A DNA stretch of 64,000 nt from Antedon mediterranea. Its lineage: Eukaryota; Animalia; Echinodermata. The stretch covers positions 10,602,001-10,666,000 of the forward strand of contig NC_092680.1 in assembly GCF_964355755.1 (NCBI RefSeq), written 5' to 3'. The notes below the pieces were generated by a model. That model made no database searches. It was not told the DNA's origin and saw only the letters and a program-made list of their open reading frames with translations. Each line of letters opens with the position of its first letter. Position 1 is the first letter of the stretch. Position numbers and translations under genes: made by a program. Below are positions 13,722-51,582 of the stretch, piece by piece.

Positions 13722-13778
<57 letters not shown>

Positions 13779-16700
13779 TCTATCTCTCTCTCTCGCTGAT
13801 CTATCTCTTTCTCGTTGATCTATCTCTCTCTCTCGCTGATCTATCTCTTTCTCGCTGATCTCTCTCTCTCTCGCTGATCTATCTCTCTCTCGCTGATCTA
13901 TCTCTCTCACGCTGATCTATCTCTCTCTCCTCTCGCTGATCTATCTCTCTCTCTCTCTCTCGCTGATCTATCTCTCTCTCGCTGATCTATCTCTCTTTCT
14001 CGCTGATCTATCTCTCTCTCGCTGATCTATCTCTCTCTCGCTGATATATCTCTCTCTCGCTGATATATCTCTCTCTCGCTGATCTATCTCTCTCTCCCTG
14101 ATCTATCGCTCTCTCGCTGATCTATCGCTCTCTCCCTGATCTATCTCTCTCTCTCTGATCTATCTCTCTCGCTGATCTATCCCTCTCTCGCTGATCTATC
14201 TCTCTCTCGCTGCTCTATCTCTCTCTCGCTGATCTATCCCTCTCTCGCTGATCTATCTCTCTCTCGCTGATCTATCCCTCTCTCGCTGATCTGTCTCTCT
14301 CTCGCTGATCTATCTGTGTCTTGCTGATCTATCTCTCTCTCGCTGATCTATCTGTGTCTCGCTGATCTATCTTTCTCTCGCTGATCTAACTCTCTCTCTC
14401 GCTGATCTATCTTTCCCCCGCTGATCTATCTGTGTTTCTCTGATCTATCTCTCTCTCGCTGATCTATCTCTCTCTCGCTGATATATCTATCTCTTGCTGA
14501 TCTATCTCTCTCTCGCTGATCTATCTCTCTCGCTAATCTATCTCTATCTCACTGATCTATCTCTCTCTCGCTGATCTATCTCTATCTCGCTGATCTATCT
14601 CTCTCTCGCTGATCTATCTCTCTCTCTCTGATCTATCTCTCTCTCGCTGATCTATCTCTCTCTCGCTAATCTATCTCTCTGTCGCTGATCTATCTCTCTC
14701 TCGCTTATCTATCTCTCTCTCGCTGATCTATCTCTCTCTCGCTGATCTATCTCTCTCTCGCTGATATATCTCTCTCTTGCTGATCTATCTCTCTCTCGCT
14801 GATCTATCTCTCTCTCGCTGATCTATCTCTATCTCGCTGATCTATCTCTCTCTCGCTGATCTATCTCTATCTCGCTGATCTATCTCTCTCTCGTTGATCT
14901 ATCTCTCTCTCGCTGATCTATCTCTCTCTCTCGCTGATCTACCTCTCTCTCTCGCTGATCTATCTCTCTCGCTGATCTATCTCTTTCTCGCTGATCTATC
15001 TCTCTCTCGCTGATCTATCTCTCTCTCGCTGATATATCTCTCTCTCGCTGATCTATCTCTCTCTCGCTGATCTATCTCTCTCGCTGATCTATCGCTCTCT
15101 CGCTGATCTATCTCTCTCTCTCGCTGATCTATCTCTCTCTCGCGGATCTATCTCTCTCTCTCTCTGATCTATCTCTCTCTCGCTGATCTATCCCTCTCTC
15201 GCTGATCTATCTCTCTCTCGCTGATCTATCCCTCTCTCCTCGATCTATCTCTCTCTCGCTGATCTATCTCTTTCTCGCTGATCTATCTCTCTCTCGCTGA
15301 TCTATCTGTGTCTCGCTGATCTATCTCTCTCTCTCTCTCGCTGATCTAACTCTCTTTCGCTGATCTATCTCTCTCTCGCTGATCTATCTGTGTCTCGCTG
15401 ATCTATCTCTCTCTCGCTGATCTATCTGTGTCTCGCTGATCTATCTCCTTCTCGCTGATCTATCTCTCTCTCGCTGATCTATCTCTCTCTCACTGATCTA
15501 TCTGTGTCTCGCTGATATATCCCTCTCTCTCTCTCTCGGTGATCTATCTCTCTCGCTGATCTATCTCTCTCGCTGATCTATCTCTCTGTCGCTGATCTAT
15601 CTCTCTCTCGCTGATCTATCTCTCTGTCGCTGATCTATCTCTCTCTCGCTGATCTATATCTCTCTCGCTGATCTCTCTCTCTCTCGCTGATCTATCTCTC
15701 TCTCGCTGATCTATCTCTCTCTCGCTGATCTATCTCTCTCTCGCTGATCTATCTCTCTCTCTCTCTCGCTGATCTGTCTCTCTCTCGCTGATCTATCTCT
15801 CTCTCTCGCTGATCTATCTCTCTCTCGCTGATCTATCTCTCTCTCGCTGATCTATCTCTCTCTCGCTGATATATCTCTCTCTCGCTGATCTATCTCTCTC
15901 TCGCTGATCTATCTCTCTCTCGCTGATCTATCGCTCTCTCGCTGATCTATCTCTCTCTCTCGCTGATCTATCTCTCTCTCGCGGATCTATCACTCTCTCT
16001 CTGATCTATCTCTCTCTCGCTGATCTATCCCTCTCTTGCTGATCTATCTCTCTCTCGCTGATCTATCCCTCTCTCTTCGATCTATCTCTCTCTCGCTGAT
16101 CTATCCCTCTCTCGCTGATCTATCTCTCTCTCGCTGATCTATCTGTGTCTTGCTGATCTATCTCTCTCTTGCTGATCTATCTGTGTCTTGCTGATCTATC
16201 TCTCTCTCGCTGATCTAACTCTCTCTCGCTGATCTATCTCTCTCGCTGATCTATCTCTATCTCGCTGATCTATCTCTATCTCGCTGATCTATCTCTTTCT
16301 CGCTGATCTATCTCTCTCTCGCTGATCTATCTCTCTCTCGCTGATCTATCTGTGTCTCGCTGATCTTTCTCTCTCTCTCTCGCTGATCTAACTCTCTTTC
16401 GCTGATCTATCTCTCTCTCGCTGATCTATCTGTGTCTCGCTGATCTATCTCTCTCTCACTGATCTATCTGTGTCTCGCTGATCTATCTCCCTCTCGCTGA
16501 TCTATCTCTCTCTCGCTGATCTATCTCTCTCTCGCTGATCTATCTGTGTCTCGCTGATATATCTCTCTCTCTCTCGCTGATCTATCTCTCTCTCGCTGAT
16601 CCATCTCTCTCGCTGATCTATCTCTCTCTCGCTCATCTATCTCTCTCTCGCTGATCTATCTCTCTGTCGCTGATCTATCTCTCTCTCTCGCTGATATATA

Positions 16701-18337
16701 TCTCTCTCGCTGATCTATCTCTCTCTCTCTCGCTGATCTATCTCTCTCTCGCTGATCTATCTATCTCTCTGTCGCTGATCTATCTCTCTCTCGCTGATCT
16801 ATCTCTCTGTCGTTGATCTATCTCTCTCTCGCTCTTCTATCTCTCTCTCGCTGATCTATCTTTCTGTCGCTGATCTATATCTCTCTCGCTGATCTATCTC
16901 TCTCTCTCGCTAATCTATCTCTTTCTCGCTGATCTATCTATCTTTCTGTCGCTGATCTATCTCTCTCTCGCTGATCTATCTCTCTGTCGTTGATCTATCT
17001 CTCTCTCGCTGATCTGTCTCTCTGTCGCTGATCTATCTCTCTCTCGCTGATCTATCTCTCTCTCGCTGATCTATCTCTATCTCGCTGATCTATCTCTCTC
17101 TCGCTGATCTATCTCTCTCTCTCTCTCTGATATATCTCTCTCTCGCTGATCTATCTCTCTCTCTCGCTGATCTATCTCTCTCTCGCTGATCTATCTCTCT
17201 CTCGCTGATCTATCTCTCTCTAGCTGATTTATCTCCCTTTCGCTGATCTATCTCTCTCTCGCTGATCTATCTCTCTCTTGCTGATCTATCTCTCTCTCTC
17301 TCTCTCTCGCTGATCTATCTCTCTCTCGTTGATCTATCTCTCTCTCGCTGATCTATCTCTCTCTCGCTGATCTCTCTCTCTCTCGCTGATCTATCTCTCT
17401 CTCGCTGATCTATCTCTCTCACGCTGATCTATCTCTCTCTCCTCTCGCTGATCTATTTCTTTCTCTCTCTCTCGCTGATCTATCTCTCTCTCGCTGATCT
17501 ATCTCTCTTTCTCGCTGATCTATCTTTCTCTCGCTGATCTATCTCTCTCTCGCTGATATATCTCTCTCTCGCTGATATATCTCTCTCTCGCTGATCTATC
17601 TCTCTCTCCCTGATCTATCGCTCTCTCGCTGATCTATCGCTCTCTCCCTGATCTATCTCTCTCTCTCTCGCTGATCTATCTCTCTCTCTCTGATCTATCT
17701 CTCTCGCTGATCTATCCCTCTCTCGCTGATCTATCTCTCTCTCGCTGATCTATCTCTCTCTCGCTGATCTATCCCTCTCTCGCTGATCTATCTCTCTCTC
17801 GCTGATCTATCCCTCTCTCGCTGATCTGTCTCTCTCTCGCTGATCTATCTGTGTCTTGCTGATCTATCTCTCTCTCGCTGATCTATCTGTGTCTCGCTGA
17901 TCTATCTCTCTCTCGCTGATCTAACTCTCTCTCTCGCTGATCTATCTCTCCCCCGCTGATCTATCTGTGTTTCTCTGATCTATCTCTCTCTCGCTGATCT
18001 ATCTCTCTCTCGCTGATATATCTATCTCTTGCTGATCTATCTCTCTCTCGCTGATCTATCTCTCTCGCTAATCTATCTCTATCTCACTGATCTATCTCTC
18101 TCTCGCTGATCTATCTCTATCTCGCTGATCTATCTCTCTCTCGCTGATCTATCTCTCTCTCTCTGATCTATCTCTCTCTCGCTGATCTATCTCTCTCTCG
18201 CTGATCTATCTCTCTCACGCTGATCTATCTCTCTCTCCTCTCGCTGATCTATCTCTCTGTCGTTGATCTATCTCTCTCTCGCTGATCTGTCTCTCTGTCG
18301 CTGATCTATCTCTCTCTCGCTAATCTATCTCTCTCTC
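1..18337. repeat. Satellite A: ~19-bp pyrimidine-rich tandem repeat, consensus GCTGATCTA(TC)5, variable TC number
   Basis: Continuous repetition of gctgatcta followed by (tc)4-8. Recurrent variants include ctgtgtctc, gcggatc, ctaactc and cctcgatc. Confidence 0.98.
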
Positions 18338-18418
18338 TAATGAAAACATTTCTTCTGGTTTCGATTCGTATAATAATATAAGTAGTTCTTTGATAGTAAA
18401 CCAATAAAACTTACGTTG

Positions 18419-18462
18419 GCAAGACAGTTTCGTCTAGCTGTCAGCTTGACTTCTTCAGTTGC
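18419..18462 (-). ncRNA. Minimal type I hammerhead ribozyme in inverted pLTR
   Basis: Reverse complement of 19210-19253. Confidence 0.83.
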
Positions 18463-19209
18463 TATGATGCGTTATGGCGCCGATTGGTCTCCTTTCCAGC
18501 CACTAGATGATTTTGTTGTGTAGCCTAGGGGACCAGTCGTCGTCAGAAGCTGATCGTAAATGTGAGATAGTTGGTGCGCGCCTTCGTCTCTATTCATCTT
18601 TGTATTTTTATTTTGCTTTCTTATGCTGATGCTTTCTTTAATTTTACGTTTAAGCCAAACTTGTTCTTTGTGTAGTACCTCTATCTTATCCCAGTTAGGT
18701 ATGTGGTTGTGTGTGGTCATATGGTCCGTGATTGCTGATTTATGTAAAATGGAGGACGAAACTTTCCGTGATGCACGCGTCTGCATGTTCTGTGTGTTTT
18801 CCTCAACATCTTTCTTGTGCTCTTTAATTCTGGTTTTGAGTGCCCTACCCGTTTCCCCAATGTACACCATCTCACAGTTGGTGCACCCCACTTTGTAGAC
18901 GACACCACAGGAATCCTCTTTGCATGCTTTATCTTTCGGTCGGACGATTAAGTTTTTAATTTTGTTAGATGGTTTAAAGTATGTTCGTATGTTATATTTT
19001 TTTTTTTTTTTTTTTTTTTTAAACGTAAAATTAAAGAAAGCATCAGCATAAGAAAGCAAAATAAAAATACAAAGATGAATAGAGACGAAGGCGCGCACCA
19101 ACTATCTCACATTTACGATCAGCTTCTGACGACGACTGGTCCCCTAGGCTACACAACAAAATCATCTAGTGGCTGGAAAGGAGACCAATCGGCGCCATAA
19201 CGCATCATA

Positions 19210-19253
19210 GCAACTGAAGAAGTCAAGCTGACAGCTAGACGAAACTGTCTTGC
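19210..19253 (+). ncRNA. Minimal type I hammerhead ribozyme in 5' pLTR
   Basis: Stem I GCAA/TTGC, core CTGAAGA, stem II GTC-A-AGCT-gac-AGCT-A-GAC, then GAAA, very short stem III AC-T-GT and GTC cleavage triplet. Confidence 0.85.
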
Positions 19254-19322
19254 CAACGTAAGTTTTATTGGTTTACTATCAAAGAACTACTTATATTATT
19301 ATACGAATCGAAACCAGAAGAA

Positions 19323-21851
19323 ATGTTTTCATTATTGAGAGAGAAATATGGACAAGATTTGGTCCGATTACTCAGAAAGGGAGAAATTGTTGGAAAAAAG
19401 ATCGCGCGTTTTTGTAACCATAGAACATTCACATTAAGGTGTAAACAAGAAGATATCACTCCGCGAAGTCTACGACTGAACTTCCCGCTAAAAACGAAGA
19501 AAGGATATGACATAATTAAGAAAGCACAAAAAGGATTAGTAGGGGAAAGGATTAGAAATACGACCAACAAGATTAAAAACTTAAATGAAGAATTCAAACG
19601 TATTGAAGAAAAGATTTGCAACATTGTTGACCTAGATGATAACGCAACTATAACAAATAAATACCATTTTGTAAACATACGCGAATCGGAATTTAAGAAA
19701 ACTAAAGACATTCACATCAATAAGTTAGATATACAATTGAACATAAGGGACAAAAAGAATACAGATGGTTTGCAATCTACAGGATCACAACGAAAAAAGT
19801 GGGTTATTAACTTATCCAACAGACGGCTAACACATACTGAGAACTATGTACTTACTAAAGGTTTAAACTACGCGATTACGAAACCTAACCACCCTACTGA
19901 AGAACTGATCGTTGCCACGGAATCAGCATGCAATCTTTTACCGGAAATAGAAAAAGATCAACTTCGAGGGAAGATGGTAAGCCTAATTAAATCTACTAAA
20001 CCTCCGACTCCGAATGTAACCAAGGAAGAGATGCAGGCTTTGAACAACATCGCGAAAGATAAAACCATTATGGTATTACCGGCCGATAAAGGTAGGGCCA
20101 CAGTAATTCTGAACACTAAAGAATATGATGAGAAAGTGAGAAACATGCTTTCAGATACTGATACATACACGCTATTAAAGAAAAATCCTACCTCATCCTA
20201 CAAGAAAAAACTTATCACTGTAATCACGAGACTCCTCAAAGAAAAGAAAATCACTGTCAAACAAAAACACTACTTGTACCCCACGTCGGACATCACACCA
20301 AGAATTTACTGCACACCAAAAATCCATAAAATGAATAATCCGTTACGTCCCATAGTCGATTATACGGGATCCATTATGTACAATTTGTCACGAAGCTTAG
20401 CCGACATTCTCGTACCACTAGTTGGAAACAGCATCCATCATGTTACCAATTCGCTTGAATTTGTCAATGACATAAAGGACATTAAGTTACAGACAAATGA
20501 AACATTGGTCTCTTATGATGTAGTGTCATTATTTACCAAAACACCAGTCAACAAGTCCCTCAAAATAATTGAAGAACGCTTAAACTGTGATAAACAACTA
20601 TCAGAGAGAACGTGGTTACATATCAACGACATTATGGAATTGCTTCAATTGGTCCTCACCACCACATATTTCAGCTTCAGAGGGGATATCTACCAGCAAA
20701 ATTCAGGTATGGCCATGGGTAGTCCATGTTCTCCGATTGTTGCGAATTTATTTATGGAATGGCTGGAAAATGAGGCAATAACTACAGCTCACACCGACAT
20801 AAAACCGAGGATGTGGAAAAGGTATGTAGATGACATTATAACAATAATTCCCAAGGATGCGACACAACCATTATTACAACACTTAAACAAAATCGATGAT
20901 GACATTAATTTCACTTGCGAAGAAATGTCCTTAACAGACAACTCTATCCCATTCTTGGATACGCTAATTTTAATTGATGGGGAAGGCAACATCAACACTA
21001 AAGTTTTTAGAAAAGCCACCCACACAAATCAATACTTGGACTTTAACTCACATCATCCTCTACAACACAAGTTATCCGTTATCCGCACACTTCTACACAG
21101 ATGTAACACGATAATCACAAATAATGCAGACAAACAGAACGAAACTGAGATGATACATACTTCACTTAAACAATGCAACTACCCTACATGGACGATTAGA
21201 AAGGTACAACGTAACCTAGATAAACAAAAAACCGACAAACAACCCGAAACAAAAGATATAAGAGGGTCGATATCCATCCCATATATTCAAGGCCTGTCAG
21301 AGAAAATCAAGAGAACATTTAAAAAATATAACATACGAACATACTTTAAACCATCTAACAAAATTAAAAACTTAATCGTCCGACCGAAAGATAAAGCATG
21401 CAAAGAGGATTCCTGTGGTGTCGTCTACAAAGTGGGGTGCACCAACTGTGAGATGGTGTACATTGGGGAAACGGGTAGGGCACTCAAAACCAGAATTAAA
21501 GAGCACAAGAAAGATGTTGAGGAAAACACACAGAACATGCAGACGCGTGCATCACGGAAAGTTTCGTCCTCCATTTTACATAAATCAGCAATCACGGACC
21601 ATATGACCACACACAACCACATACCTAACTGGGATAAGATAGAGGTACTACACAAAGAACAAGTTTGGCTTAAACGTAAAATTAAAGAAAGCATCAGCAT
21701 AAGAAAGCAAAATAAAAATACAAAGATGAATAGAGACGAAGGCGCGCACCAACTATCTCACATTTACGATCAGCTTCTGACGACGACTGGTCCCCTAGGC
21801 TACACAACAAAATCATCTAGTGGCTGGAAAGGAGACCAATCGGCGCCATAA
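19323..21851 (+). CDS. Penelope/Poseidon-type reverse transcriptase plus GIY-YIG endonuclease, 842 aa, uninterrupted
   Basis: RT motifs ADKG, PKIHK..PLRPIV, SYDVVSLFT, GMAMGSPCSP and RYVDD. C-terminal GVVYKVGC..C...YIGETGR...RIKEH is a GIY-YIG signature. Confidence 0.96.
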   Translation: MFSLLREKYGQDLVRLLRKGEIVGKKIARFCNHRTFTLRCKQEDITPRSLRLNFPLKTKKGYDIIKKAQKGLVGERIRNTTNKIKNLNEEFKRIEEKICNIVDLDDNATITNKYHFVNIRESEFKKTKDIHINKLDIQLNIRDKKNTDGLQSTGSQRKKWVINLSNRRLTHTENYVLTKGLNYAITKPNHPTEELIVATESACNLLPEIEKDQLRGKMVSLIKSTKPPTPNVTKEEMQALNNIAKDKTIMVLPADKGRATVILNTKEYDEKVRNMLSDTDTYTLLKKNPTSSYKKKLITVITRLLKEKKITVKQKHYLYPTSDITPRIYCTPKIHKMNNPLRPIVDYTGSIMYNLSRSLADILVPLVGNSIHHVTNSLEFVNDIKDIKLQTNETLVSYDVVSLFTKTPVNKSLKIIEERLNCDKQLSERTWLHINDIMELLQLVLTTTYFSFRGDIYQQNSGMAMGSPCSPIVANLFMEWLENEAITTAHTDIKPRMWKRYVDDIITIIPKDATQPLLQHLNKIDDDINFTCEEMSLTDNSIPFLDTLILIDGEGNINTKVFRKATHTNQYLDFNSHHPLQHKLSVIRTLLHRCNTIITNNADKQNETEMIHTSLKQCNYPTWTIRKVQRNLDKQKTDKQPETKDIRGSISIPYIQGLSEKIKRTFKKYNIRTYFKPSNKIKNLIVRPKDKACKEDSCGVVYKVGCTNCEMVYIGETGRALKTRIKEHKKDVEENTQNMQTRASRKVSSSILHKSAITDHMTTHNHIPNWDKIEVLHKEQVWLKRKIKESISIRKQNKNTKMNRDEGAHQLSHIYDQLLTTTGPLGYTTKSSSGWKGDQSAP

Positions 21852-21860
21852 CGCATCATA

Positions 21861-21904
21861 GCAACTGAAGAAGTCAAGCTGACAGCTAGACGAAACTGTC
21901 TTGC
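21861..21904 (+). ncRNA. Minimal type I hammerhead ribozyme in 3' pLTR
   Basis: Identical copy of 19210-19253. Confidence 0.85.
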
Positions 21905-21977
21905 CAACGTAAGTTTTATTGGTTTACTATCAAAGAACTACTTATATTATTATCTCTCTCTCGCTGATCTATCTCTC

Positions 21978-22035
21978 CACAGCTGTTTCAACCTATGATA
22001 ATATTTTAGAAAAAGTCAAGCGCCCTCAATGTTAG
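21978..22035 (+). repeat. Left bipartite TIR: 14-bp terminal block, 21-bp spacer, 23-bp inner block
   Basis: CACAGCTGTTTCAA (21978-21991) and AAGTCAAGCGCCCTCAATGTTAG (22013-22035). Confidence 0.85.
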
Positions 22036-22813
22036 CAGACGACTTTTTCTGAACCGCGGAAGATTGAAAATTCGTTCGCGAGAGGTTATGAAACTTTCGC
22101 GAACGTCAAAAATATACAAGTATCATTTGTAGTCAATTCAACGTGTTTTTAATCAAGTTATCAGTTAAGGTTAGTATTTGCTGGTTTGAAACCAGATTTT
22201 TTATGATTTATTTACAGCATAATGATAAAAAAACAATTACTAAGACGACTTATCGAATATAAAAGTCGGTTAATTTACCCGGAAATAGCAGCGAACAGCG
22301 TAGTCTATATTGTAAACAAACAAAAGTTAAAAATACACCGTCAAACTTCACCGATTGTGTTTACATCGTTATTTTTTAAAACATAATACTTATTTTCTAT
22401 AAACCATTAATACTAATTGGAAATATTTAACATAGTTTTGTTAAAAGGTGACGGTTCAATATCTTATAAATTATCGTAATACAACAGCCTTTTTTTAAAC
22501 ATTAGCCGATCACCGGGTATGCAGGCGCAGACGAGGCCCGCGACGAGCGTGGCCTTTCTGGCGGCCTAGCTTTAATCTAGGCCCAAGCCTGTGTGATTTT
22601 TTCGCAATGAATTAAAACTCTTTAAGTAACATGATTATTAAGAATTTTTAATAATGCTAGCTAATACGATTGTTCCATTTATTAAGTTTAATATTCACTG
22701 AATATGCATATTTTCCTAGGCCTAGAACTAGGCTAGGCTTATTAGATATTAACTTAAAATTTACAACAAATGAAATTGCACTGTATCAAATTTAAAATAC
22801 TATCTTCCCACAG

Positions 22814-25800
22814 ATGGAGTTTCATGAGATGGCACTGTCCTCTATTTGTTTTGATTGTGGAAAAAAAATGAAAGAAAAGGATGAGAGGTACTCTTTGGTC
22901 AACATGAAAAAATTATCCCCTTTTTTGGAAATTCAAAATGCTGTTGATCCAGATAGACTTTGCTCCACTTGTCATTCAAGATTTTATAAAGGGCATTCTC
23001 TTTCGCCGTTTCACTATCAGCCACATGAGGAAGAAAGATGTTTAACATGTTTTTTATACAGAAACCAACTAGTATCAGGGCGAAGACAGAAACAAAATTT
23101 TCAAAGAGGTACAAGCGGTAATTTTACTTCAGTTCCTCTGCCGCTAGCCCCAATCAGTCGGCAGTTTAAAATCTTAAACGATTGTGATAAAATTTATGAA
23201 TGCCTAATTTGCAAAAAAATGTTATCTCTTGATAGCGTCCAGACACCATGTGGCCATTTTTTTTGCACACACTGTACAAACAAATTGTTTTCTGCTTTTT
23301 CCAAATTATCTATTCCCTGTTTTAGTTGTAATTCTAATTTTAAGAAGGACGAACTTGTGCAAATTCCGACAATCATTGAGCACTCATTAACATCAGTTGT
23401 CCTTCAATGTTCTATTTGTCTGTCAAAATTATATCTAAGTGAAACAGACAATCATGTATGTAAAACGGAAAAGGAACAAGCATTTATGAAAATTAGAAAT
23501 GCTGTTAAAGATATCCAAACTGCAACTGCCAACACAAATGTCTACCCAACAGAGCTATCAAATCTGGCACATAAGCTAGTTCATCAAGATGTGACGGAAG
23601 GGAAAATAACTTTGAAAACTCAAGGACGGGTAAGATTCCAAATCCGATTATTAATATTATATAATAATAAAATAATTTTCCTTTAAAATCATCTGATTAG
23701 TCATTATTTTGTGAGGCTTAAATATTATTTTCTGCTTGTAATTAATTTAAACATTTTCAATTTTGAAGCCACTAAACATGGTTACCGCTTCGCAAGCCAC
23801 CAAAGTGAATGTTGCTGCTGCACCAGATACTAATGGTCAAAAAATGGATGCAACAAGGTGCCTTGGTATCATGAACGCCTGCAAAATAAATTGGAGTCAG
23901 CAGCGGGCATTACGAAGGTAATTGAAGTTTTAATTAGTGAATTCTCATAATCCATAACGAATAAATTGATTGATTTATAAACCACTGCAGAACTAATAAA
24001 ACATACTGATCACTATGAAAATTATTATGCAGTTGAATTATTTATTTGCATTTTAGGTTTTGTCCAGGCTTACTAGCATCAGAACGCCAGATGAGAATAT
24101 GCCAAGACAAAATTGTTGATGGCTATTTGGTTAAATCAACCGAGTATATGTTTGTAAAGAGGGAGGGAGCTACGTCAATTGGTGGGCTGTCATTGGAAGA
24201 AGTTGCAGTCGTCAGACTCGCCCAAATTAAGAAACTGATTTATGAATATTTAAATCAATATGAAATGTATGTACACAATTTTTTATTCATTCCTGGTTAT
24301 CCTTACGACACATTGCTGATTGGCTTTCACTAATAGTACTGTATCATGTGATCTGCATTTTTATTATACATACAGTACAGTACCACTAAAATTTGTACTT
24401 TTAAAATATCGTAAAATGTAATAAACATTTAATAATAATTGTTGTAACGAAGCTTAAGATTATGCTTAAATTCTTTTTTTAGAAAAAACAAACACAAACT
24501 GTATGTTAATAACAATTTTATTTAACAACCAAACTACCGTAAATAAAAGTTATCAATTAGTAATAAGAAATATCAATGGTTACATTTATTAACAATTGTA
24601 TGTACAGCTATAAATAACATAAGGAATTATAAATATAAAACAAATTATTTCCTGCATTTCAGGTCAGATGAGCTAACTTTTTTCAACAATGGAGAAATAT
24701 TTATTAAATTTGGCGGCGATAAGGGTGGTGATACCACAAAATTTGAGATACAAATTTGTGCGTTACCCAAACCAAATGCTCTCCACAACATTATAGTAGT
24801 CTTGATATTCCAGGCCCCAGATTTTACTGTCAACATCAACAAAGGACTCAATTTAATAATGGATGAAGTAATGGAATTGAATGGCAGTCAGTGGATATCT
24901 CCTAAAACCAAAATGTAAGTTCACAATTTCATTAAAATTTGTAAATTATAATTTTGTACATTTAGAGGAGGGAGTTGTATATATTATATAAAGAGATTAT
25001 TTATTTAGTACATTTAAAAAAATCTAATTTCAGACCTCACAACATCAGACTTTTTTTCTTCGGAGACTATGACTTTCTTTGCAGAATATATGGACTAATT
25101 AGTCCCAACGGTTAGTTAAATTCACCTATTTTTTTATTTAAGTTTTTAAACTTAATAAACTATTGTTTTGATAGAAAATAATATACTGTATCTGGTATTT
25201 TTTTAAAGGAAAATATAGCTGTATATACTGCCTGTGTAGTCAAGATGACATTAGGTCCAACAACAAACCATCAGAAAACAGATGCCTAAAGACATACAAC
25301 AGAGATTACAAAAGTTTTCTTGACCATGGCAGTGACCCAAAGAAGAGCAAACTGATATCACACAGTGTCATCCGGCCTTACATGGTTGATATTGAATTAA
25401 ATCGGGTAGGTTATTTAAATTATAATTCAAACAAATAAGTCCATAACAATATTAGTTCTAAACAAACTTAAAACAACTAATATTTTCATACCTCTTTAAT
25501 TAATGTATATTTCCAGGTATCAATTCCAGCACTGCATATTTCTCTCGGGCTTTTTAAAAAAATGTACGATTTGCTTGAGATTGAAATACACAATCTTGAT
25601 GTAATTATCTTTAACATGAGACAGGAATCGACAATTCCAACAGGTATGTCAGTAAATGTTAATTTCCTTTTTATTTAAAACTTTTTCCTCCACATTTTCA
25701 AAGATAATTTCAATAATTAATTATTTTTTCAAGGTGAACATCTAGCAGATTTTGATCGTAAGGTAGCAGAATGTGCAGCACACAGAATTACTTGTGCAGA

Positions 25801-26970
25801 AAAAATGCAAAAAGCAAATCAAAAGCTTGAGGATTTACGAAATAGCCTCTCCTATGCACTTGTTGGACAAAAAGCAAAACCTCAAGAAATAGCTGAACTT
25901 GGTGCAAAAATAAATCTGAAAAAACAAGAAGTCATGGATTTGGTATGTTTCATTTTTATTTAATTACCGTACACACTAAAATAATAATAGAATTTACAAA
26001 GAAAATTATTCTGTCTAAATTTAAAGGAAACATCATTAAACCAAGACCTGAAATTTGGTTGCGGCCCATTGGCAACGAAAATGGATGAGGTCCTCAGACA
26101 AAACAAAATCCCTAGGCAACAGTACCACGGCAAAAGTTTTGTTGGCAACCATGTTCATAGAGCATGTAAAGTGAGTATATTGAATAGTGCAATCCAACAC
26201 AATGTACCCAGCTGCATTTATTAAAAAAAAAGGATGCAGAATAACTAAAAAGTTGTATATACCTTTATATATTTGTTTTTTTTTCCAGTCAAATATAATT
26301 GACAAGCTATTTGATGGTGTTGATGTAACACTCAAACAACAAATGTACCAGTGCCCAGAAAATTGCAAACGCCTCCTTGAAGTAAAATTCAAGAAAATCC
26401 AAGATTCGTTTACGCCAGTGTTTTCAACATTTAGTAAAGTGCACACTGCTATCAATCATACACGATCTATAACTGACGAAGAGATAGACACATATGGTAA
26501 ATTTCAGTTGTAAATGATAAAATAATTATTTAAGATTAGTATCAATATTCACAATAACAATACAAGGATATTGATAATGCAATCAAAATTAAATAATTAT
26601 GAATACATTGTTACCATGCAGGTATGTTATTACCATATATGTTACAATATGCTTTTTTTCCACAGAAAGTGCTATAAAACTCTTTTCAAAAGAGTACAGG
26701 AGAGTTGCTCCTAGAGTAGTCCAGCCAAAGCTACACATGTTAGAACATCATTGTATCCAGTTTATGAGGGAATGGAAAGTTGGTATCGGCTTACTAGCCG
26801 AGCAGGGAGGTGAATTAATTCACGCTGAGTTTAACAGAAGGAAACGGTCAGTGTATGGGATGAAGAGCCCCCTAGATCAATTAGTATCAATTATGAAAGC
26901 TCATTTAACATTTATAGATCCAACAATCCAAGACACAATCCAGAGGAAACGGAGAAAAGATGAAGAATAA
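22814..26970 (+). CDS. Spliced RAG1-like (Chapaev-type) DDE transposase, 897 aa, 11 coding exons: 22814-23629, 23769-23917, 24057-24266, 24663-24914, 25034-25110, 25209-25405, 25517-25643, 25734-25942, 26027-26170, 26289-26496, 26666-26970
   Basis: All 10 introns are GT-AG with compatible phases and there is no internal stop (2694 nt). Exon 1 has H..ALSSICFDCG, PDRLCSTC, QPHEEERCLTC, a C3HC4 RING (CLIC..PCGHFFCTHC..CFSC) and a following Zn finger, in RAG1 order. Core motifs are GGDKGG, GDYDFLCRIYGL..GKYSCIYC, PALHISLG, FVGNHVH, PKLHMLEHH and GLLAEQGGE. ATG is directly preceded by an acceptor (ttcccacag), implying a 5' exon. Confidence 0.9.
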
Positions 26971-28356
26971 TTAAATGTACAAGTATGCATTGTGCCAACA
27001 TTTTAATGCAGGTTACATTTAATGTTGTTTTGTTGTAAATAGGAAGAATGAGTTAACTGCCTGCTGAGGTTAATTTTGAAAGGTATTATAAGATAAGAAA
27101 GTTTAAATTTGTGTAATGTTAATAATAGTAGTTTTGCCAGACATAAGCATTTTAATGCAGGTTAAATTGTATGTTGTTGAAATTTATGTAATGTTAATTA
27201 ATGAAATAACTGCCTGTTAAGGTTTATTTTTAAAGGAATAAGAAAGTTAATTTATGTAATGTTGTTGAAAACAATATTCATAAATACTGTAATAAAAAAT
27301 TTTAATTCTTTATGTTACTTATCTGTGCAAAGCTAGCTATATTCATCTTAAACGCTATATCATCATTAGACATTGCGCGTATCAGTTGTATTTTTGCCAC
27401 TCTGTATGCATGAGCATGTATAGGTCCGCATGTGAAAAATTCTGTTTACTTTTTGATGTTTGCCATCCATTTTTTTTTCGTTCTTCCTTTTGGTAGCAAT
27501 ATTACCTGTAGTATAGACTTAAGATAGGTCTAAATAAAAAAATAACATATATATATTATTAGGTTTATATAACAGAACGGGTTTTAATGCAGGTTACATT
27601 TTATTTTGTGTTGTTGTAAATAGGAAGAATGAGCTAACTGCCTGTTGAGGTTAATTTTGAAAGGTATTATAAGATAAGAAAGTTTAATTTTATGTAATGT
27701 TAATATAATATAAAGATGAAAAATAATTAAATGTACAAGTATGCATTGTGCCCAATGCGTGCATTAAAATTTTAATGCAGGTTACATTTAATGTTTTGTT
27801 GTTGTAAATAGGAAGAATGAGCTAACTGCCTGTTGAGGTTAATTTTGAAAGGTATTATAAGATAAGAAAGTTTAAATTTGTGTAATGTTAATAATAGTAG
27901 TTTTGCCAGACATAAGCATTTAAATGCAGGTTAAATTGTATGTTGTTGAAATTTATGTAATGTTAATTAATTAAATTACTGCCTGTTAAGGTTTATTTTT
28001 AAAGGAATAAGAAAGTTAATTTATGTAATGTTGTTGAAAACAATATTCATAAATACTGTAATAAAAAATTATAATTCTTTATGTTACTTATCTGTGCAAA
28101 GCTAGCTATATTCATCTTAAAAAATCATCATTAGACATTGCGCGTATCAGTTGTATTTTTGCCACTCTGTATGCATGTATGCATGAGCATGTATAGGTCC
28201 GCATGTGAAAAATTCTGTTTACTTTTTGATGTTTGCCATCCATTTTTTTTTCGTTCTTCCTTTTGGTAGCAATATTACCTGTAGTATAGACTTAAGATAG
28301 GTCTAAATAAAAAAGAACATATATATATTATTAGGTTTATATAACAGAACGGGTTT
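26956..28356 (+). repeat. Internal tandem duplication of the transposase 3' end/3' UTR (~630 bp) with a partial third copy
   Basis: 26956-27584 is nearly identical to 27712-28356. 27583-27706 repeats the start of the unit. AATAAA occurs at 27291 and 28040. Confidence 0.9.
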
Positions 28357-29301
28357 GCCTAGACCTAATGATACTTTACTTACTGTAAACAGGCATCTTT
28401 AGCCTACTGTAGTACCGGTAGATCGCCTGGCCTAGGATAGTTCTTGTAATTTCTGTTTGAATTATGCTTATTATTTATCAGACCCACATATGATATTGAT
28501 ATGAATGATGTAGGCCTAGTAGTATGCCACATATATAATAATAGAAATAGCTAGCCTAGCTAGGTCTACCCCTTCTTGACTAGCCAGGAGGGTTTTAGGC
28601 CATACCACAACTACTTCTCCCTAGCTAGCCTACCCTCTTAACTTGGGCGGTCCAGACCAGGCCTAACTAATTAATAAATAATAGTCTAGGCCTAGGCGGC
28701 GGCTTAGCAGTAGAATTAGAATTCGAGGTAGCAGTTAAAACAGGGCAGGTCTAGCCTAGTAAGTACTGTGTGTGTAGTAGACCTAGAACTGTGTAGTGTA
28801 TTACACGTGCGCGTGGAGACTGGAGAAGGCAAAAATTTTCCTCTAGGCTTATAAATAGCATAAATTGAACCGGCCATAATTTAAATTTCAGCCGGCACCT
28901 TTTGAAAAAGTCAATGTTTCAACAATCACAAGGATCTAAATTACCAAACCCTACAGCAGGTTTATCGTGAAAAATACATTTAACCAAGATATATAAAAAC
29001 AAATGTATACCTACTTTCGACTGTGCCTACGTAAGACGCATTTTATGAAAATAATTGGAATTGACCTCAATTTCTACACTCAAAATCAGCATGTCATCAA
29101 TCGAATAGGTTCAACAACAACATGGTTTCTGTCCCGGCTGTTGTATTAATGAATATTCATAAGTTTATTTCAGCTCTCGGTCTATATTTATTTCTTATTG
29201 GTTGGTTTTATAACGGTCAAATTATGAGTAATCAGCTTCCGGTATACACACATGGATTCGCGTTTAAATGTTTGCGAGTGGTAGCTCCACAATGCACCGC
29301 T

Positions 29302-29349
29302 CTACCGTTGGCGGCGCGTGACTTAATTCATATCTTTGAAACAGCCGTG
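29302..29349 (-). repeat. Right bipartite TIR: 14-bp terminal block, 11-bp spacer, 23-bp inner block
   Basis: Minus strand reads CACGGCTGTTTCAA-agatatgaatt-AAGTCACGCGCCGCCAACGGTAG. The inner block is 18/23 identical to the left one. Confidence 0.85.
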
Positions 29350-30769
29350 TCTCTCTCGCTGATCTATCTGTGTCTCGCTGATATATCTCTCTCTCTCGCT
29401 GATCTATCTCTCTCTTTCTCGCTGATCTATCTCTCTCTCGCTGATCTATCTCTCTCTCGCTGATCAATCTATCTCTCTCTCTCGCTGATCTATCTCTCTC
29501 TCTCTCTCTCTCTCGCTGATCTATCTCTCTCTCTCGCTGGTCAATCTCTCTCTCTTTCTCGCTGATCTATCTCTCTCTCCCGCTGATCTATCTCTCTCTC
29601 TCTCTCGCTGATCTATCTCCCTCTCACTGATCTATCTCTCTCTCGCTGATCTATCTCTCTCTTGCCGATCTATCTCTCTCTCGCTGATCTATCTCTCTCT
29701 AGCTGATCTATCTCTCTCTCTCTCGCTGATCTATCTCTCTCTCTCGCTGATCTATCTCTCTCTCGCTGATCTATCTCTCTCTCGCTGATCTATCTCTATC
29801 TCACTGATCTATCTCTCTCTCGCTGATCTATCTCTATCTCGCTGATCTATCTCTCTCTCGCTGATCTATCTCTCTCTCGCTGATCTATATCTCTCTCGCT
29901 GATCTCTCTCTCTCTCTCTCGCTGATCTATCTCTCTCTCGCTGATCTATCTCTCTCTCGCTGATCTATCTCTCTCTCGCTGATCTATCTCTCTCTCGCTG
30001 ATCTATCTCTCTCTTGCTGATCTATCTCTCTCTCTCGCTGATCTATCTCTCTCTCGCTGATCTATCTCTCTCTCGCTGATCTATCTCTCTCTCGCTGATA
30101 TATCTCTCTCTCGCTGATCTATCTCTCTCTCGCTGATCTATCTCTCTCTCGCTGATCTATCGCTCTCTCGCTGATCTATCTCTCTCTCGCTGATCTATCT
30201 CTCTCTCGCGGATCTATCACTCTCTCTCTCTGATCTATCTCTCTCTCGCTGATCTATCCCTCTCTCGCTGATCTATCTCTCTCTCACTGATCTATCCCTC
30301 TCTCCTCGATCTATCTCTCTCTCGCTGATCTATCCCTCTCTCGCTGATCTATCTCTCTCTCGCTGATCTATCTGTGTCTTGCTGATCTATCTCTCTCTTG
30401 CTGATCTATCTTTGTCTCGCTGATCTATCTCTCTCTCGCTGATCTAACTCTCTCTCGCTGATCTATCTCTCTCGCTGATCTATCTCTATCTCGCTGATCT
30501 ATCTCTATCTCGCTGATCTATCTCTTTCTCGCTGATCTATCTCTCTCTCGCTGATCTATCTCTCTCTCGCTGATCTATCTGTGTCTCGCTGATCTTTCTC
30601 TCTCTCTCGCTGATCTAACTCTCTTTCGCTGATCTATCTCTCTCTCGCTGATCTATCTGTGTCTCGCTGATCTATCTCTCTCTCACTGATCTATCTGTGT
30701 CTCGCTGATTTATCTCCCTTTCGCTGATCTATCTCTCTCTCGCTGATCTATCTCTCTCTTGCTGATCTA

Positions 30770-30800
<31 letters not shown>

Positions 30801-30965
30801 TCTATCTCTCTCTCGCTGATCTATATCTCTCTCGTTGATCTATCTCTCTCTCTCGCTGATCTATCTCTCTCTCGCTGATCTCTCTCTCTCTCTTTCTCGC
30901 TGATCTATCTCTCTCTCGCTGATCTATCTCTCTCACGCTGATCTATCTCTCTCTCCTCTCGCTGA

Positions 30966-31002
<37 letters not shown>

Positions 31003-34000
31003 TCTATCTCTCTCTCTCGCTGATCTATCTCTCTCTCGCTGATCTATCTCTCTCTCGCTGATCTATCTCTCCCTCTCACTGATCTATCTCCCTCTCGCTG
31101 ATCTATCTCTCTCTCGCTGATCTATCTATCTCTTGCTGATCTATCTCTCTCTTGCTGATCTATCTCTCTCTCTCTCTCTCACTGATCTATCTCTCTCGCT
31201 GATCTATCTCTCTCTCTCTTGCTGATCTATCTCTCTCTTTCTCGCTGATCTATCTCTCTCTCTCGCTGATCTATCTCTCTCTCTCGCTGATCTATCTCTC
31301 TCTCTCGCTGATCTATATCTCTCTCGCTGATCTATCACTCTCTCTCTCTCTGATCTATCTCTCTCTCGCTGATCTATCCCTCTCTCGCTGATCTATCTCT
31401 CTCTCCTCGATCTATCTCTCTCTCGCTGATCTATCCCTCTCTCGCTGATCTATCTCTCTCTCGCTGATCTATCTGTGTCTTGCTGATCTATCTCTCTCTC
31501 GCTGATCTATCTGTGTCTTGCTGATCTATCTCTCTCTTGCTGATCTATCTGTGTCTCGCTGATCTATCTCTCTCTCGCTGATCTAACTCTCTCTCGCTGA
31601 TCTATCTCTCTCTCTCGCTGATCTATCTGTGTCTCTCTGATCTATCTCTCTCTCGCTGATATCCATCTCTCTGTCACTTATCTATCTCTCTCTCGCTTAT
31701 CTATCTCTCTCTCGCTGATCTATCTCTCTCTCGCTGATCTATCTCTCTCTCGCTGATATATCTCTTTCTTGCTGATCTATCTCTCTCTCGCTGATCTATC
31801 TCTCTCGCTGATCTATCTCTATCTCGCTGATCTATCTCTATCTCGCTGATCTATCTCTTTCTCGCTGATCTATCTCTCTCTCACTGATCTATCTCTCTCT
31901 CTCGCTGATCTATCTGTGTCTCGCTGATCTATCTCTCTCTCTCGCTGATCTAACTCTCTTTCGCTGATCTATCTCTCTCTCGCTGATCTATCTGTGTCTC
32001 GCTGATCTATCTCTCTCTCGCTGATCTATCTGTGTCTCGCTGATCTATCTCCCTCTCGCTGATCTATCTCTCTCTCGCTGATCTATCTCTCTCTCGCTGA
32101 TCTATCTGTGTCTCGCTGATATATCTCTCTCTCTCTCTCGCTGATCTATCTCTCTCTCGCTGATCTATCTCTCTCGCTGATCTATCTCTCTCTCTCGCTG
32201 ATCTATCTCTCTCTCGCTGATCTATCTCTCTCTCGCTGATCTATCTCTCCCTCTCACTGATCTATCTCCCTCTCGCTGATCTATCTCTCTCTCGCTGATC
32301 TATCTATCTCTTGCTGATCTATCTCTCTCTTGCTGATCTATCTCTCTCTCTCTCTCTCGCTGATCTATCTCTCTCGCTGATCTATCTCTCTCTCTCTTGC
32401 TGATCTATCTCTCTCTTTCTCGCTGATCTATCTCTCTCTCTCGCTGATCTATCTCTCTCTCTCGCTGATCTATATCTCTCTCGCTGATCTATCACTCTCT
32501 CTCTCTCTGATCTATCTCTCTCTCGCTGATCTATCCCTCTCTCGCTGATCTATCTCTCTCTCGCTGATCTATCCCTCTCTCCTCGATCTATCTCTCTCTC
32601 GCTGATCTATCGCTCTCTCGCTGATCTATCTCTCTCTCGCTGATCTATCTGTGTCTTGCTGATCTATCTCTCTCTCGCTGATCTATCTGTGTCTTGCTGA
32701 TCTATCTCTCTCTTGCTGATCTATCTGTGTCTCGCTGATCTATCTCTCTCTCGCTGATCTAACTCTCTCTCGCTGATCTATCTCTCTCTCTCGCTGATCT
32801 ATCTGTGTCTCTCTGATCTATCTCTCTCTCGCTGATATCCATCTCTCTGTCGCTTATCTATCTCTCTCTCGCTTATCTATCTCTCTCTCGCTGATCTATC
32901 TCTCTCTCGCTGATCTATCTCTCTCTCGCTGATATATCTCTTTCTTGCTGATCTATCTCTCTCTCGCTGATCTATCTCTCTCGCTGATCTATCTCTATCT
33001 CGCTGATCTATCTCTATCTCGCTGATCTATCTCTTTCTCGCTGATCTTTCTCTCTCTCACTGATCTATCTCTCTCTCTCGCTGATCTATCTGTGTCTCGC
33101 TGATCTATCTCTCTCTCTCGCTGATCTAACTCTCTTTCGCTGATCTATCTCTCTCTCGCTGATCTATCTGTGTCTCGCTGATCTATCTCTCTCTCGCTGA
33201 TCTATCTGTGTCTCGCTGATCTATCTCCCTCTCGCTGATCTATCTCTCTCTCGCTGATCTATCTCTCTCTCGCTGATCTATCTGTGTCTCGCTGATATAT
33301 CTCTCTCTCTCTCTCGCTGATCTATCTCTCTCTCGCTGATCTATCTCTCTCGCTGATCTATCTCTCTCTCGCTCATCTATCTCTCTCTCGCTGATCTATC
33401 TCTCTGTCGCTGATCTATCTCTCTCTCGCTGATCTATATCTTTCTCGCTGATCTATCTCTCTCTCGCTGATCTATCTCTCTGTCGCTGATCTATCTCTCT
33501 CTCGCTGATCTATCTCTCTGTCGTTGATCTATCTCTCTCTCGCTGATCTGTCTCTCTGTCGCTGATCTATCTCTCTCTCGCTAATCTGTCTCTCTGTCGC
33601 TGATCTATCTCTCTCTCGCTTATCTATCTCTTTCTCGCTGATCTATCTCTCTCTCGCTGATCTATCTCTCTCTCGCTGATCTATCTCTCTCGCTGATATA
33701 TCTCTCTCTTGCTGATCTATCTCTCTCTCGCTGATCTATCTCTCTCTCGCTGATCTATCTCTATCTCGCTGATCTATCTCTCTCTCGCTGATATATCTCT
33801 CTCTCGCTGATCTATCTCTCTCTCGCTGATCTATCTCTCTCTCTCTGATCTATCTCTCTCTCGCTGATCTATCTCTCTCTCTCGCTGATCTATCTCTCTC
33901 TCGCTGATCTATCTCTCTCTCGCTGATCTATCTCTCTCTCGCTGATCTATCTCTCTCTAGCTGATTTATCTCCCTCTCGCTGATCTATCTCTCTCTCGCT

Positions 34001-34023
34001 GATCTATCTCTCTCTTGCTGAGA

Positions 34024-34107
<84 letters not shown>

Positions 34108-36796
34108 GCTGATCTATCTTTCTCTCGCTGATCTATCTCTCTCTCGCTGATCTATCTCTCTCTCTCGCTGATCTATGTCTCTCTCGCTGATCTATATGTG
34201 TCTCGCTGATATATCTCTCTCTCGCTGATCTATCTCTCTCTCGCTGATCTATCTCTCTCTCGCTGATCTATCTCTCTCTCGCTGATCTATCTCTCTCTTG
34301 CTGATCTATCTCTCTCGCTGATCTATCTCTCTCTCGCTGATCTATCTCTCTCTCGCTGATCTATCTCTCTCTCGCTGATCTATCTCTCTCTCGCTGATCT
34401 ATCTGTCTCTCGCTTATCTATCTGTCTCTCGCTGATCTATCTGTCTCTCGCTGATCTATCTGTCTTTCGCTGATCTATCTGTCTCTCGCTGATATATCTG
34501 TCTCTCGGTGATCTATCTCTCTCTCGCTGATCTATCTCTCTCTCGCTGATCTATCTCTCTCTTGATGATCTATCTGTCTCTCGCTGATCAATCTGTCTCT
34601 CGCTGATCTATCTGTCTCTCGCTGATCTATCTGTCTCTCGCTGATCTATCTGTCTCTCGCTGATCTATCTGTCTCTCGCTGATGTATCTCTCTCTCTCGC
34701 TGATCTATCTCTCTCGCTGATCTATCTCTCTCTCGCTGATCTATCTCTCTCTCGCTGATCTATCTCTCTCTCGCTGATCTATCTCTCTCTTGCTGATCTA
34801 TCTCTCTCTTGCTGATCTATCTCGCTCTGGCTGATCTATCTCTCTCTCGCTGATCTATCTCTCTCTCGCTGATCTATCTTTCTCTCGCTGATCTATCTCT
34901 CTCTCGCTGATCTATCTCTCTCTCTCGCTGATCTATGTCTCTCTCGCTGATCTATCTCTCTCTCTCTCGCTGATCTATCTCTCTCTCGCTGATCTATCTA
35001 TCTCTCTCTCGCTTATCTATATCTCTCTCTCTCTCTCGCTGATCTATGTCTCTCTCGCTGATCTATCTCTCTCTCTCGCTGATCTATCTTTCTCTCGCTG
35101 ATTTATCTCTCTCTCTCGCTGATCCATGTCTCTCTCGCTGATCCATCTCTCTCTCTCGCTGATCTATCTCTCTCTCTCTCGCTGATCTATCTCTCTCTCG
35201 CTGATCTATCTCTCTCTCGCTGATCTATCTCTCTGTCGCTGATCTATTTCTCTCTCGCTGATCTATCTCTCTCTTTCGCTGATCTATCTCTCTCTTTCTC
35301 GCTGATCTATCTCTCTTTCTCGCTGATCTATGTCTCTCTCGCTGATCTATCTCTCTCTTTCTCGCTGATCTATCTCTCTCTCGCTGATCAATCTATCTCT
35401 CTCTCTCGCTGATCTATCTCTCTCTCGCTGATCTATCTCTCTCTTGCTGATCTTTCTGTCTCTCGCTGATCTATCTGTCTCTCGCTGATCTATCTGGCTC
35501 TCGCTGATCTATCTGTCTTTCGCTGATCTATCTGTCTCTCGCTGATATATCTGTCTCTCGCTGATCTATCTCTCTCTCGCTGATCTATCTCTCTCTCGCT
35601 GATCTATCTCTCTCTTGATGATCTATCTGTCTCTCGCTGATCAATCTGTCTCTCGCTGATCTATCTGTCTCTCGCTGATCTATCTGTCTCTCGCTGATCT
35701 ATCTGTCTCTCGCTGATCTATCTGTCTCTCGCTGATGTATCTCTCTCTCTCGCTGATCTATCTCTCTCGCTGATCTATCTTTCTCTCGCTGATCTATCTC
35801 TCTCTCGCTGATCTATCTCTCTCTCGCTGATCTATCTCTCTCTTGCTGATCTATCTCTCTCTCGCTGATCTATCTCTCTCTCGCTGATCTATCTCTCTCT
35901 CGCTGATCTATCTTTCTCTCGCTGATCTATCTCTCTCTCGCTGATCTATTTCTCTCTCTCGCTGATCTATGTCTCTCTCGCTGATCTATCTATCTTTCTC
36001 TCGCTGATCTATCTCTCTCTCGCTGATCAATCTATCTCTCTCTCGCTGATCTATATCTCTCTCTCTCTCGCTGATCTATGTCTCTCTCGCTGATCTATCT
36101 CTCTCTCTCGCTGATCTATCTCTCTCTCGCTGATTTATCTCTCTCTCTCTCGCTGATCCATGTCTCTCTCACTGATCCATCTCTTTCTCGCTGATCTATC
36201 TCTCTCTCTCTCGCTGATCTATCTCTCTCTCGCTGATCTATCTCTCTCTCGCTGATCTATCTCTCTGTCGCTGATCTATCTCTCTCTCGCTGATCTATCT
36301 CTCTCTCTCTCGCTGATCTATCTCTCTCTTTCTCGCTGATCTATCTCTCTTTCTCGCTGATCTATGTCTCTCTCGCTGATCTATCTCTCTCTTTCTCGCT
36401 GATCTATCTCTCTCTCGCTGATCAATCTATCTCTCTCTCTCGCTGATCTATCTCTTTCTCTCTCTCTCTCTCGCTGATCTATATCTCTCTCTCTCGCTGA
36501 TCTATCTATCTCTCTCTCTCGCTGATCTATCTCTCTCTCTCTCTCGCTGATCTATCTCTCTCTCTCTCGCTGATCTATCTCTCTCTCTCTCTCGCTGATC
36601 TATCCTCTCTCTCTCTCGCTGATCTATCTCTCTCTCTCTCTCTCTCTCTCGCTGATCTATCTCTTTCTCTCTCGCTGATCTATATCTCTCTCTCTCGCTG
36701 ATCTATCTCTCTCTCTCTCTCGCTGAGCTATCTCTCTCTCTCTCTCGCTGATCTATCTCTCTCTCTCGCTGATCTATCTCTCTCTCTCGCTGATCT
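29350..36796. repeat. Satellite A, continued
   Basis: Same unit, with distinct variants (tatctgtctc, tatgtctc, gatcaatcta) enriched toward the right edge. Confidence 0.98.
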
Positions 36797-50802: not shown

Positions 50803-51582
50803 TAGTCAGCTTTTAAACAATGATTATACCATTTTTAGAAAGGATAGAAATTCTCATGGAGGGGGGGGGGGGGTTTAATTGCTTGTAAAACATGTTTAAA
50901 TCCATCTTTATGCACAGATCTCAATGTTGATACACTTGAACTGATTTGGATAGAATGTCATTGTAATATAGGTAAAATTTTATTAGGAGTGTTTTATAGG
51001 CCGCCTTCTTCAAATGTTCAATATTTAAATTCCTTTATTGATAATATAGATAAAGTTCAAGCAAAAGTTGTTGATTACAAACAGGTATTACTCATAGGCG
51101 ACTTTAATATTCATGTTGATTGGAATTGTTTGAATGTGAACAATGGTTTATCCGCCCAAGCAGGAAGCTTGGTAGAAGGAACAATGGCAACTGGACTAGT
51201 GCAAATAATAGACCAGCCTTCTTATGTAACACGAAATGGGGATGGGCACTTTTTGGACTTGACTTTTGTTAGTAATCCACTTTTAATTGATAAATGTCAA
51301 ATTATTAACAATTTTGACTCATGTGATCATGAGGCAATTGAGATATGTCTAAGGATATCAAAACAACGTGACAAAGTTATAACAAAAACTGTATATGTAC
51401 TAAAAAATGCAGATTAGCAGAAAAGCATATTAATTAATTTTAATTGGGAAAATTGTTTTATGTTTGAAAATATGAATCTGTGCCTATTAAGAAAAGAAAT
51501 AAAACTAAATTATTTCCATGGATTACTACAGAAATTAAGAAACTTTGTACAAAGAAAAGAAAATTATATAGGAAGGCTAAGA

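Follow-up and report, generated by a model that had tools for sequence, protein, structure and literature searches.

Bipartite ends whose spacers differ by one helical turn in an apparently intact, RAG1-related Chapaev transposon of Antedon mediterranea and in distant Chapaev families

Ends with unequal spacers are known from some transposons related to RAG1. According to passages of the respective reports, five single-gene Transib families (Transib5, Transib2_AG and TransibN1-3_AG) have terminal inverted repeats (TIRs) resembling 12/23 recombination signal sequences (RSSs; PMC1131882; PMC8355894), the RAGL element PflRAGL-A has a TIR asymmetry of 10 bp (bioRxiv 2023.08.20.553239), and ProtoRAG, with 27/31 ends, has a measured preference for its own asymmetric pair (PMC8289069). 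Here we report on an element in a 64,000-nucleotide stretch of Antedon mediterranea DNA (GCF_964355755.1, contig NC_092680.1, positions 10,602,001 to 10,666,000, forward strand; "the window"), which, judged from its sequence, is an intact cut-and-paste Chapaev transposon and kin of RAG1, and whose two bipartite ends have spacers that differ by 10 bp.

Chapaev elements are recognised by CAC...GTG termini, the Chapa zinc finger (joined by a RING in two subgroups) and a DDE core with C(2)C, LH and H(4)H motifs (passages of PMC4079192 and PMC4411706). Bipartite or asymmetric Chapaev ends were not described in the passages of published running text covered, and prior notice is possible; a 2026 preprint on the RAG1 N-terminal finger covers the Chapa domain, and its main text does not contain the term 'TIR'. 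The sequence-only reading, an earlier account of the same letters made without database searches, had named no earlier description of a 12/23-like pairing for Chapaev; this agrees with the passages covered, but one-protein 12/23-like ends are in print for Transib (PMC1131882) and a 10-bp asymmetry for PflRAGL-A.

The element shares with the Chapa+RING subgroup of Chapaev (CMC/CMCT clade) its termini, a duplication of the target site (TSD) read as 4 bp and a protein with Chapa finger, RING and DDE core, and it differs in lacking about 45 aa of a segment that resembles the nonamer-binding domain (NBD) of RAG1. Like Transib it has one transposase, no RAG2 and 5' and 3' ends about one turn apart (as described in passages of PMC1131882), whereas Transib has 5-bp TSDs, an A-rich nonamer and neither Chapa nor RING, and the Chapaev core is only distantly related to that of Transib (PMC4411706, in part). 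With RAG1/RAG2 it has in common the domain order, from an N-terminal zinc finger to the catalytic core, and a heptamer that starts with CAC; RAG differs in the presence of RAG2, in its A-rich inner motif and in heptamer-to-nonamer gaps of 12/23 +/-1 bp, compared to 10-12/21-22 bp in the Chapaev relatives and 28/18 bp in the window element, where the NBD helices are deleted. The RAGL elements PflRAGL-A and ProtoRAG also have bipartite asymmetric ends, with the same 10-bp difference in PflRAGL-A, but encode RAG2L, generate 5-bp TSDs and have a CCGHC tail that is absent in the window protein and in 82/82 long Chapaev proteins. Finally, passages on Hermes (hAT) describe a single transposase that tells left from right end via sub-terminal sites (PMC10368747), and there it is the number of BED sites on one end, not a one-turn spacing of a shared site, that matters.

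Asymmetric ends of the window element

The element and the parts of its ends are as follows (end positions are counted inward from each terminus).

21978..29349 (+): complete Chapaev DNA transposon, 7372 bp, intact
21978..21991 (+): 14-bp terminal block of the 5' end, in agreement with the Chapaev terminus CAC(R)G..GTTT
21992..22012 (+): 5' (long) spacer, 21 bp
22013..22035 (+): 5' inner block, end positions 36-58
29336..29349 (-): 3' terminal block, 14 bp
29325..29335 (-): 3' (short) spacer, 11 bp
29302..29324 (-): 3' inner block, end positions 26-48

The left end opens with CACAGCTGTTTCAA at 21978 and the right end, reading inward from 29349, with CACGGCTGTTTCAA. As the sequence-only reading had it, both ends start with CAC and share a 14-bp block (13/14 identical), and CAC...GTG termini with inverted repeats are a Chapaev hallmark. 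Each terminal 14-mer is single in the 64 kb at 0 mismatches; with up to 2 mismatches there are three matches, compared to 0.33 expected. The 23-bp inner block reported earlier was recovered as the best ungapped inner match between the ends (18/23 identical; first position 36 in the left end and 26 in the right end), with a score of 13 compared to 5-9 at other offsets, and a match of this quality was attained in 0/2000 shuffles of positions 15-60 and in 1/2000 of positions 15-100. The block is GC-rich, lies in inverted orientation on both ends, and its core is confined to two places in the window, one per end. The earlier figures for the spacers, 21/11 bp after the 14-mer or 28/18 bp after the heptamer, hold, and the two signals are bipartite with a difference of 10 bp, approximately one helical turn. 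Calling the ends RSS-like overstates the likeness, since the inner block is not an A-rich nonamer and the gaps are not 12/23; an A-rich nonamer 12 or 23 bp from the heptamer was found neither in the window element nor in its relatives. The short end also has a ATGAATATTCAT palindrome at position 190.

Other copies of the left end are present in contigs of four runs of one sample, which is possibly the source of the window; the counts below are among the contigs listed. The left boundary at 21978 is backed by loose ends from other insertion sites (at least five contigs in X1 and at least four in X2). Other contigs share the left end only up to about 22041 and diverge after 22041-22042, and in X1 the depth on the first 64 bp (21978-22041) is approximately 1640, compared to 19-168 in the interior. 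Non-autonomous families that keep just these 64 bp are thus likely. A deep left-end variant, at roughly half the X1 depth, has an altered spacer sequence of equal length with a compensating 1-bp deletion and insertion, and in X4 there is a different 15-letter stretch of the same length.

End layout in distant Chapaev families

The scan of metagenome contigs covered 80 of 168 confirmed loci, to which one locus from genome contigs was added (L081). Paired CAC(R/T)G..G(T/C)TT ends flanked by a 4-bp TSD are present at 15 loci, and identical 11-bp termini without a TSD at a further three; these 18 loci form 11 families, and L038, found later, falls in an existing family. The family count excludes 62 of the 81 loci, for which there are no paired ends around the matched gene. 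Anchors were placed by best match, except for L028, where this was done by eye. When lengths of 3 and 5 bp were also allowed, the TSD was still 4 bp in 15/15 pairs.

An inner motif with the consensus GGGCACTTAG is present in each of the 11 families, and its CACTTAG part lies at positions 20-22 on 5' ends and 31-32 on 3' ends. Expressed as the gap past the heptamer, the GGCACTTAG-type 9-mer is found after 10-12 bp at the 5' end and 21-22 bp at the 3' end, and the offsets between the ends are 10, 11, 12, 10, 10, 11, 10, 10, 10, 10 and 11 bp (mean 10.45). Between families the termini are 0.85 and the 9-mers 0.77 identical, and the spacers 0.27-0.35, which is near random. Matrices built with one family left out recovered both anchors in 10/11 cases (the 3' anchor of L072 came second). 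The sequence-only reading had expected a genuine signal to keep its inner block and one-turn offset while the spacer varied: this is the pattern across the 11 distant families and, for the left end, in the deep variant of the host sample, and with an offset of 10-12 bp in 11/11 families a private 10-bp indel is not what was found.

The window element does not follow its relatives in every respect, since its long spacer is at the 5' end, opposite to theirs. One may ask if its offset is a neutral indel in a decayed inverted repeat of 48-58 bp that matches the relatives by chance. The sequence, position and polarity of its block are unlike those of the relatives, and only one 3' end of its family has been seen; yet the spacers are without useful similarity between the ends while the blocks on either side are alike, the deep variant keeps the length of the left spacer with a changed sequence, and a random offset would land within 9-12 bp, in one polarity, approximately 8.5% of the time. 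We regard this explanation as very improbable. That the window block is the tail of the relatives' long ends, or their 9-mer inverted (both by eye), found no backing in the matrices and was rejected.

The pairing of short and long ends is uniform in the relatives. Among 84 loci (893,694 bases; only 4-bp TSDs searched), 17/17 TSD-flanked inward pairs are short at the 5' and long at the 3' end (15 distinct sites if equal TSDs count as one insertion). Distinct ends with a strong motif are bimodal, with 20/41 at 20-21 and 12/41 at 31-32, and the distribution of background CAC sites is flat. Further assemblies contribute single 3' ends, with the anchor at 31-32 in L046, L047, L058, L075 and L078, and at 23 in L065. 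A rival explanation is that helical phasing operates without a pairing rule: the inner site would merely need to lie on the correct face of the helix, an extra turn in the spacer would be tolerated, the short/long arrangement would simply be inherited, and pairs of equal ends would work just as well. The common ancestry of the paired families would fit this, as would passages reporting that symmetry is relaxed for RAG1 alone (PMC4840297) and the proposal that invertebrate RAGL is fairly insensitive to asymmetry (PMC7204232). However, 0/17 pairs are short/short or long/long, the distant lineage of the window element has kept the asymmetry although its polarity, inner sequence and protein domain have changed, and the 3' end of L018, which belongs to another clade, is of the short type (with a weak match at 21; its 5' end is outside the contig). 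Phasing of this kind is an unlikely, though serious, alternative.

Further motifs are fixed to within approximately 2 bp on the ends of L015, L019, L028, L040, L051, L055, L057, L062, L072 and L077: TT(C/A)CGG at 51-55 and AT(G/T)AATA at 66-68 on 5' ends, and T(A/G)GCAAC at 76-78 and 88-90 on 3' ends. A second rival explanation is that the inner blocks are not transposase sites but host-factor sites, or part of the promoter and insulator layout of the element, which sets the spacing. The position-fixed 5' motifs would fit this, and the window transposase is without the obvious reader of the inner site. On the other hand, the same block is inverted on both ends, L035 (from another assembly and branch) has 21/31 anchors without these extra motifs, and the change of the 9-mer coincides, in one lineage only, with the loss of the NBD helices. 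This too is improbable, and more so than phasing.

Viral contigs contained no relative and no match to the window end pattern; three isolated pattern matches there were off both modes and were treated as chance. The phages gave no match, and the genome contigs gave one locus only, L081, without convincing ends. L081 is an animal-type Chapaev fragment in the record of a bacterial metagenome-assembled genome and is likely host contamination. In L031 an unrelated repeat (1921-13488) has inverted copies with a 10-bp offset between 16-bp and 44-bp blocks.

The transposase and how it might read the ends

The gene model was obtained by placing exons by hand on the sequence.

22814..26970 (+): transposase gene, 11 GT-AG exons, 897 aa, no internal stop
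22814-23629, 23769-23917, 24057-24266, 24663-24914, 25034-25110, 25209-25405 (+): exons 1 to 6
25517-25643, 25734-25942, 26027-26170, 26289-26496, 26666-26970 (+): exons 7 to 11
22814..23629 (+): exon 1, RAG1 N-terminal-like (Chapa) zinc finger, then RING and a zinc finger, with G-R of the GRP motif at its end
23769..23917 (+): exon 2, NBD-equivalent segment in shortened form, 43 aa

The Chapaev DDE core is present, with a predicted triad of D411, D487 and E846 and with C506-x2-C509, LH573-574 and H820/H824-825, all kept in relatives, and the protein matches PF06918 above the cut-off. The Cys and His residues of the Chapa finger align with those of relatives that match PF12560 (the regular expression used for this finger is the motif as we take it to be), and the RING is slightly below the Pfam cut-off (25.9 compared to 27). 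Together with the termini, these features uphold the earlier assignment to a RAG1-related Chapaev element. The claim of a single protein without RAG2 also stands, as no RAG2-like gene was found in the open frames of the element: a second, convergent gene was sought and the longest minus-strand frame is 139 aa, while frames past the transposase stop reach 95 aa (+) and 59 aa (-), with no Pfam match in the three frames scanned; a gene split into numerous very small exons could in principle have escaped this search. Moreover, the window protein has no CX2CX3GHX4C C-terminal tail and does not have the core-only architecture of Transib, without Chapa or RING. Exon 1 as a protein query gave no match. 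The nearest proteins are from crinoids (P0185, 72% over 412 aa; last exon 77% and 70%), followed by Asterias proteins (support 98, in a quick tree with gene pieces as rows). A long helical hairpin inserted in the core at residues ~590-690, seen in all aligned Chapaev proteins, is a candidate end-binding or pairing surface.

Alignment and predicted fold show that typical Chapaev transposases have a RAG1-like core behind an NBD-like domain of three helices. Specifically, the alignment of a profile of 103 family sequences to mouse RAG1 spans residues 97-490 and takes in the GGRP hook and the NBD's basic helix (E 4.9e-19), and the profile also matches the RAG1 NZD 21wb (E 8e-13). For the model of P0007 (predicted local distance difference test 85.5) RAG1 is the top structural match (E 1e-15; against RAG1 390-1007, Z 27.4, root-mean-square deviation 6.3, 526 aligned), and the HzTransib structure aligns only beyond the NBD, compared to RAG1 390 onward for P0007. 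The full NBD-like segment was found in 9/11 paired families; in L035 it is split over two frames and in L051 there was no match. A two-copy prediction of the segment from P0007 scored 0.10, compared to a mark of 0.32, and was not used.

In the window protein this segment is 43 aa, compared to 82-93 aa in 71/75 long proteins (the others have 45, 58 and 69; one row was left out of the count as truncated). It matches only positions 55-100 of the 100 in the NBD profile, such that the GRP hook is kept and the helices are missing; the full domain, GRP hook plus three helices, was not found. In the model of P0004, which is similarly short and served as a proxy, a linker of low confidence stands in place of the three helices of P0007. 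P0004 and P0007, both Asterias amurensis by source name, are 55-56% identical, without and with the NBD-like helices, and since P0004 clusters with P0007 rather than with the window protein, there may have been two separate losses. Judged from its sequence, the window element is thus a variant with approximately 45 aa of the NBD-like domain deleted, a different inner block and the long end at 5'.

How the ends might be used can be outlined from what is observed, namely the anatomy of the element, its 10-bp offset and, in relatives, spacer length kept without kept sequence. In typical Chapaev the NBD-like domain would read the inner GGCACTTAG-type 9-mer, the inner site would need to lie on a constant face of the helix, and the complex of paired ends would, like that of RAG, accommodate a short end together with a long one. 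In the window element the NBD helices are deleted and the one-turn offset retained, and the different inner block would be read by another part of the protein, with the GRP hook that is left and the zinc fingers at the N-terminus as candidates; otherwise the new block would have no reader. On balance, we lean towards a single transposase using the one-turn offset to favour one short and one long end.

Several observations weigh against this. With the NBD helices missing, the 9-mer unmatched (the window ends score at most 1.1 against the family 9-mer in forward orientation; the best reverse score is 6.0, on one end) and the polarity reversed, a RAG-type mechanism cannot apply directly to the window element. 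The RAG-type rule of the sequence-only reading is therefore kept in part: the layout is shared with relatives, but the window transposase is without most of the NBD-like domain that would explain such a rule. According to passages of PMC4840297, RAG1 no longer requires asymmetric substrates when RAG2 is absent. Moreover, the 11-bp 3' spacer of the window family rests on one copy, and low-depth contigs of the host sample include a spacer that is shorter by 1 bp and, in a broken copy, one that is longer by approximately 5 bp. Among the relatives, 9/41 distinct strong-motif ends are off both modes, 10/11 families are one clade, and nine come from one assembly prefix; the families are thus not independent, and a null of uniform position overstates significance. 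Finally, a low indel rate or promoter geometry may contribute to the fixed spacing.

The insertion site and the significance of the asymmetry

The element lies in satellite DNA.

21974..21977 (+): left TSD, TCTC; 4 bp is the most probable length, 2 and 6 bp agree as well
29350..29353 (+): right TSD, TCTC
29350..36796 (no strand): 19-bp satellite array, insertion target; continues at 21951-21977 and 1-18337
26956..28356 (+): internal duplication in the element's 3' non-coding part (~640 bp, 94% identity)

The flanks lie in a TC run and agree at 2, 4 or 6 bp, not at 3 or 5 bp. At the insertion the run has 6+8=14 letters, and the modal pure run in the array has 10 (357/491), which is the length that a 4-bp duplication implies; a 4-bp TSD is therefore favoured and is probable, within the 3- to 4-bp range of Chapaev. 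Neither the 3-bp TWA of the Chapaev3 subgroup nor the 5-bp TSD of Transib was found at these flanks.

The 19-bp satellite has approximately 950 copies at 1-18337 and approximately 380 at 29350-36796, and the array received two independent insertions, one unit apart. The other is a Penelope-like retroelement (18338-21950) with an 870-codon frame that has a reverse transcriptase domain (PF00078) and a C-terminal part which we take to be GIY-YIG-like; it ends 27 bp from the Chapaev element and is preceded by an inverted partial copy that repeats its 3' 633 bp without a difference. Other retroelement fragments are at 46416-47408 and 50848-51417 (a weak SGNH-type match; endonuclease PF14529), and the remaining window is mostly other satellites of 87-88, 186 and 261 bp.

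Asymmetric ends have so far been reported for a few Transib and RAGL elements, and their distribution bears on the origin of the 12/23 rule and on the need for RAG2. The conserved one-turn asymmetry in Chapaev is apparently an undescribed property of a known superfamily. A further-reaching scenario, which we put forward tentatively and consider possible but rather doubtful, is that a 12/23-type rule predates RAG2 and the split of Chapaev from Transib/RAG; Chapaev alone would enforce short/long pairing via its NBD homologue, and the echinoderm-like lineage of the window element would have lost the NBD helices and taken up a new inner signal via another domain (e.g. the Chapa finger, whose RAG1 counterpart is without known mechanism), with the rule kept. 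The window element bears on this in two ways: as an intact single-gene element with defined ends it is a direct substrate for a pairing test, and its natural NBD deletion separates the geometry of the ends from the domain thought to read the inner site. If the one-turn asymmetry is a rule in Chapaev, the layout may date to the common ancestor of Chapaev, Transib and RAG.

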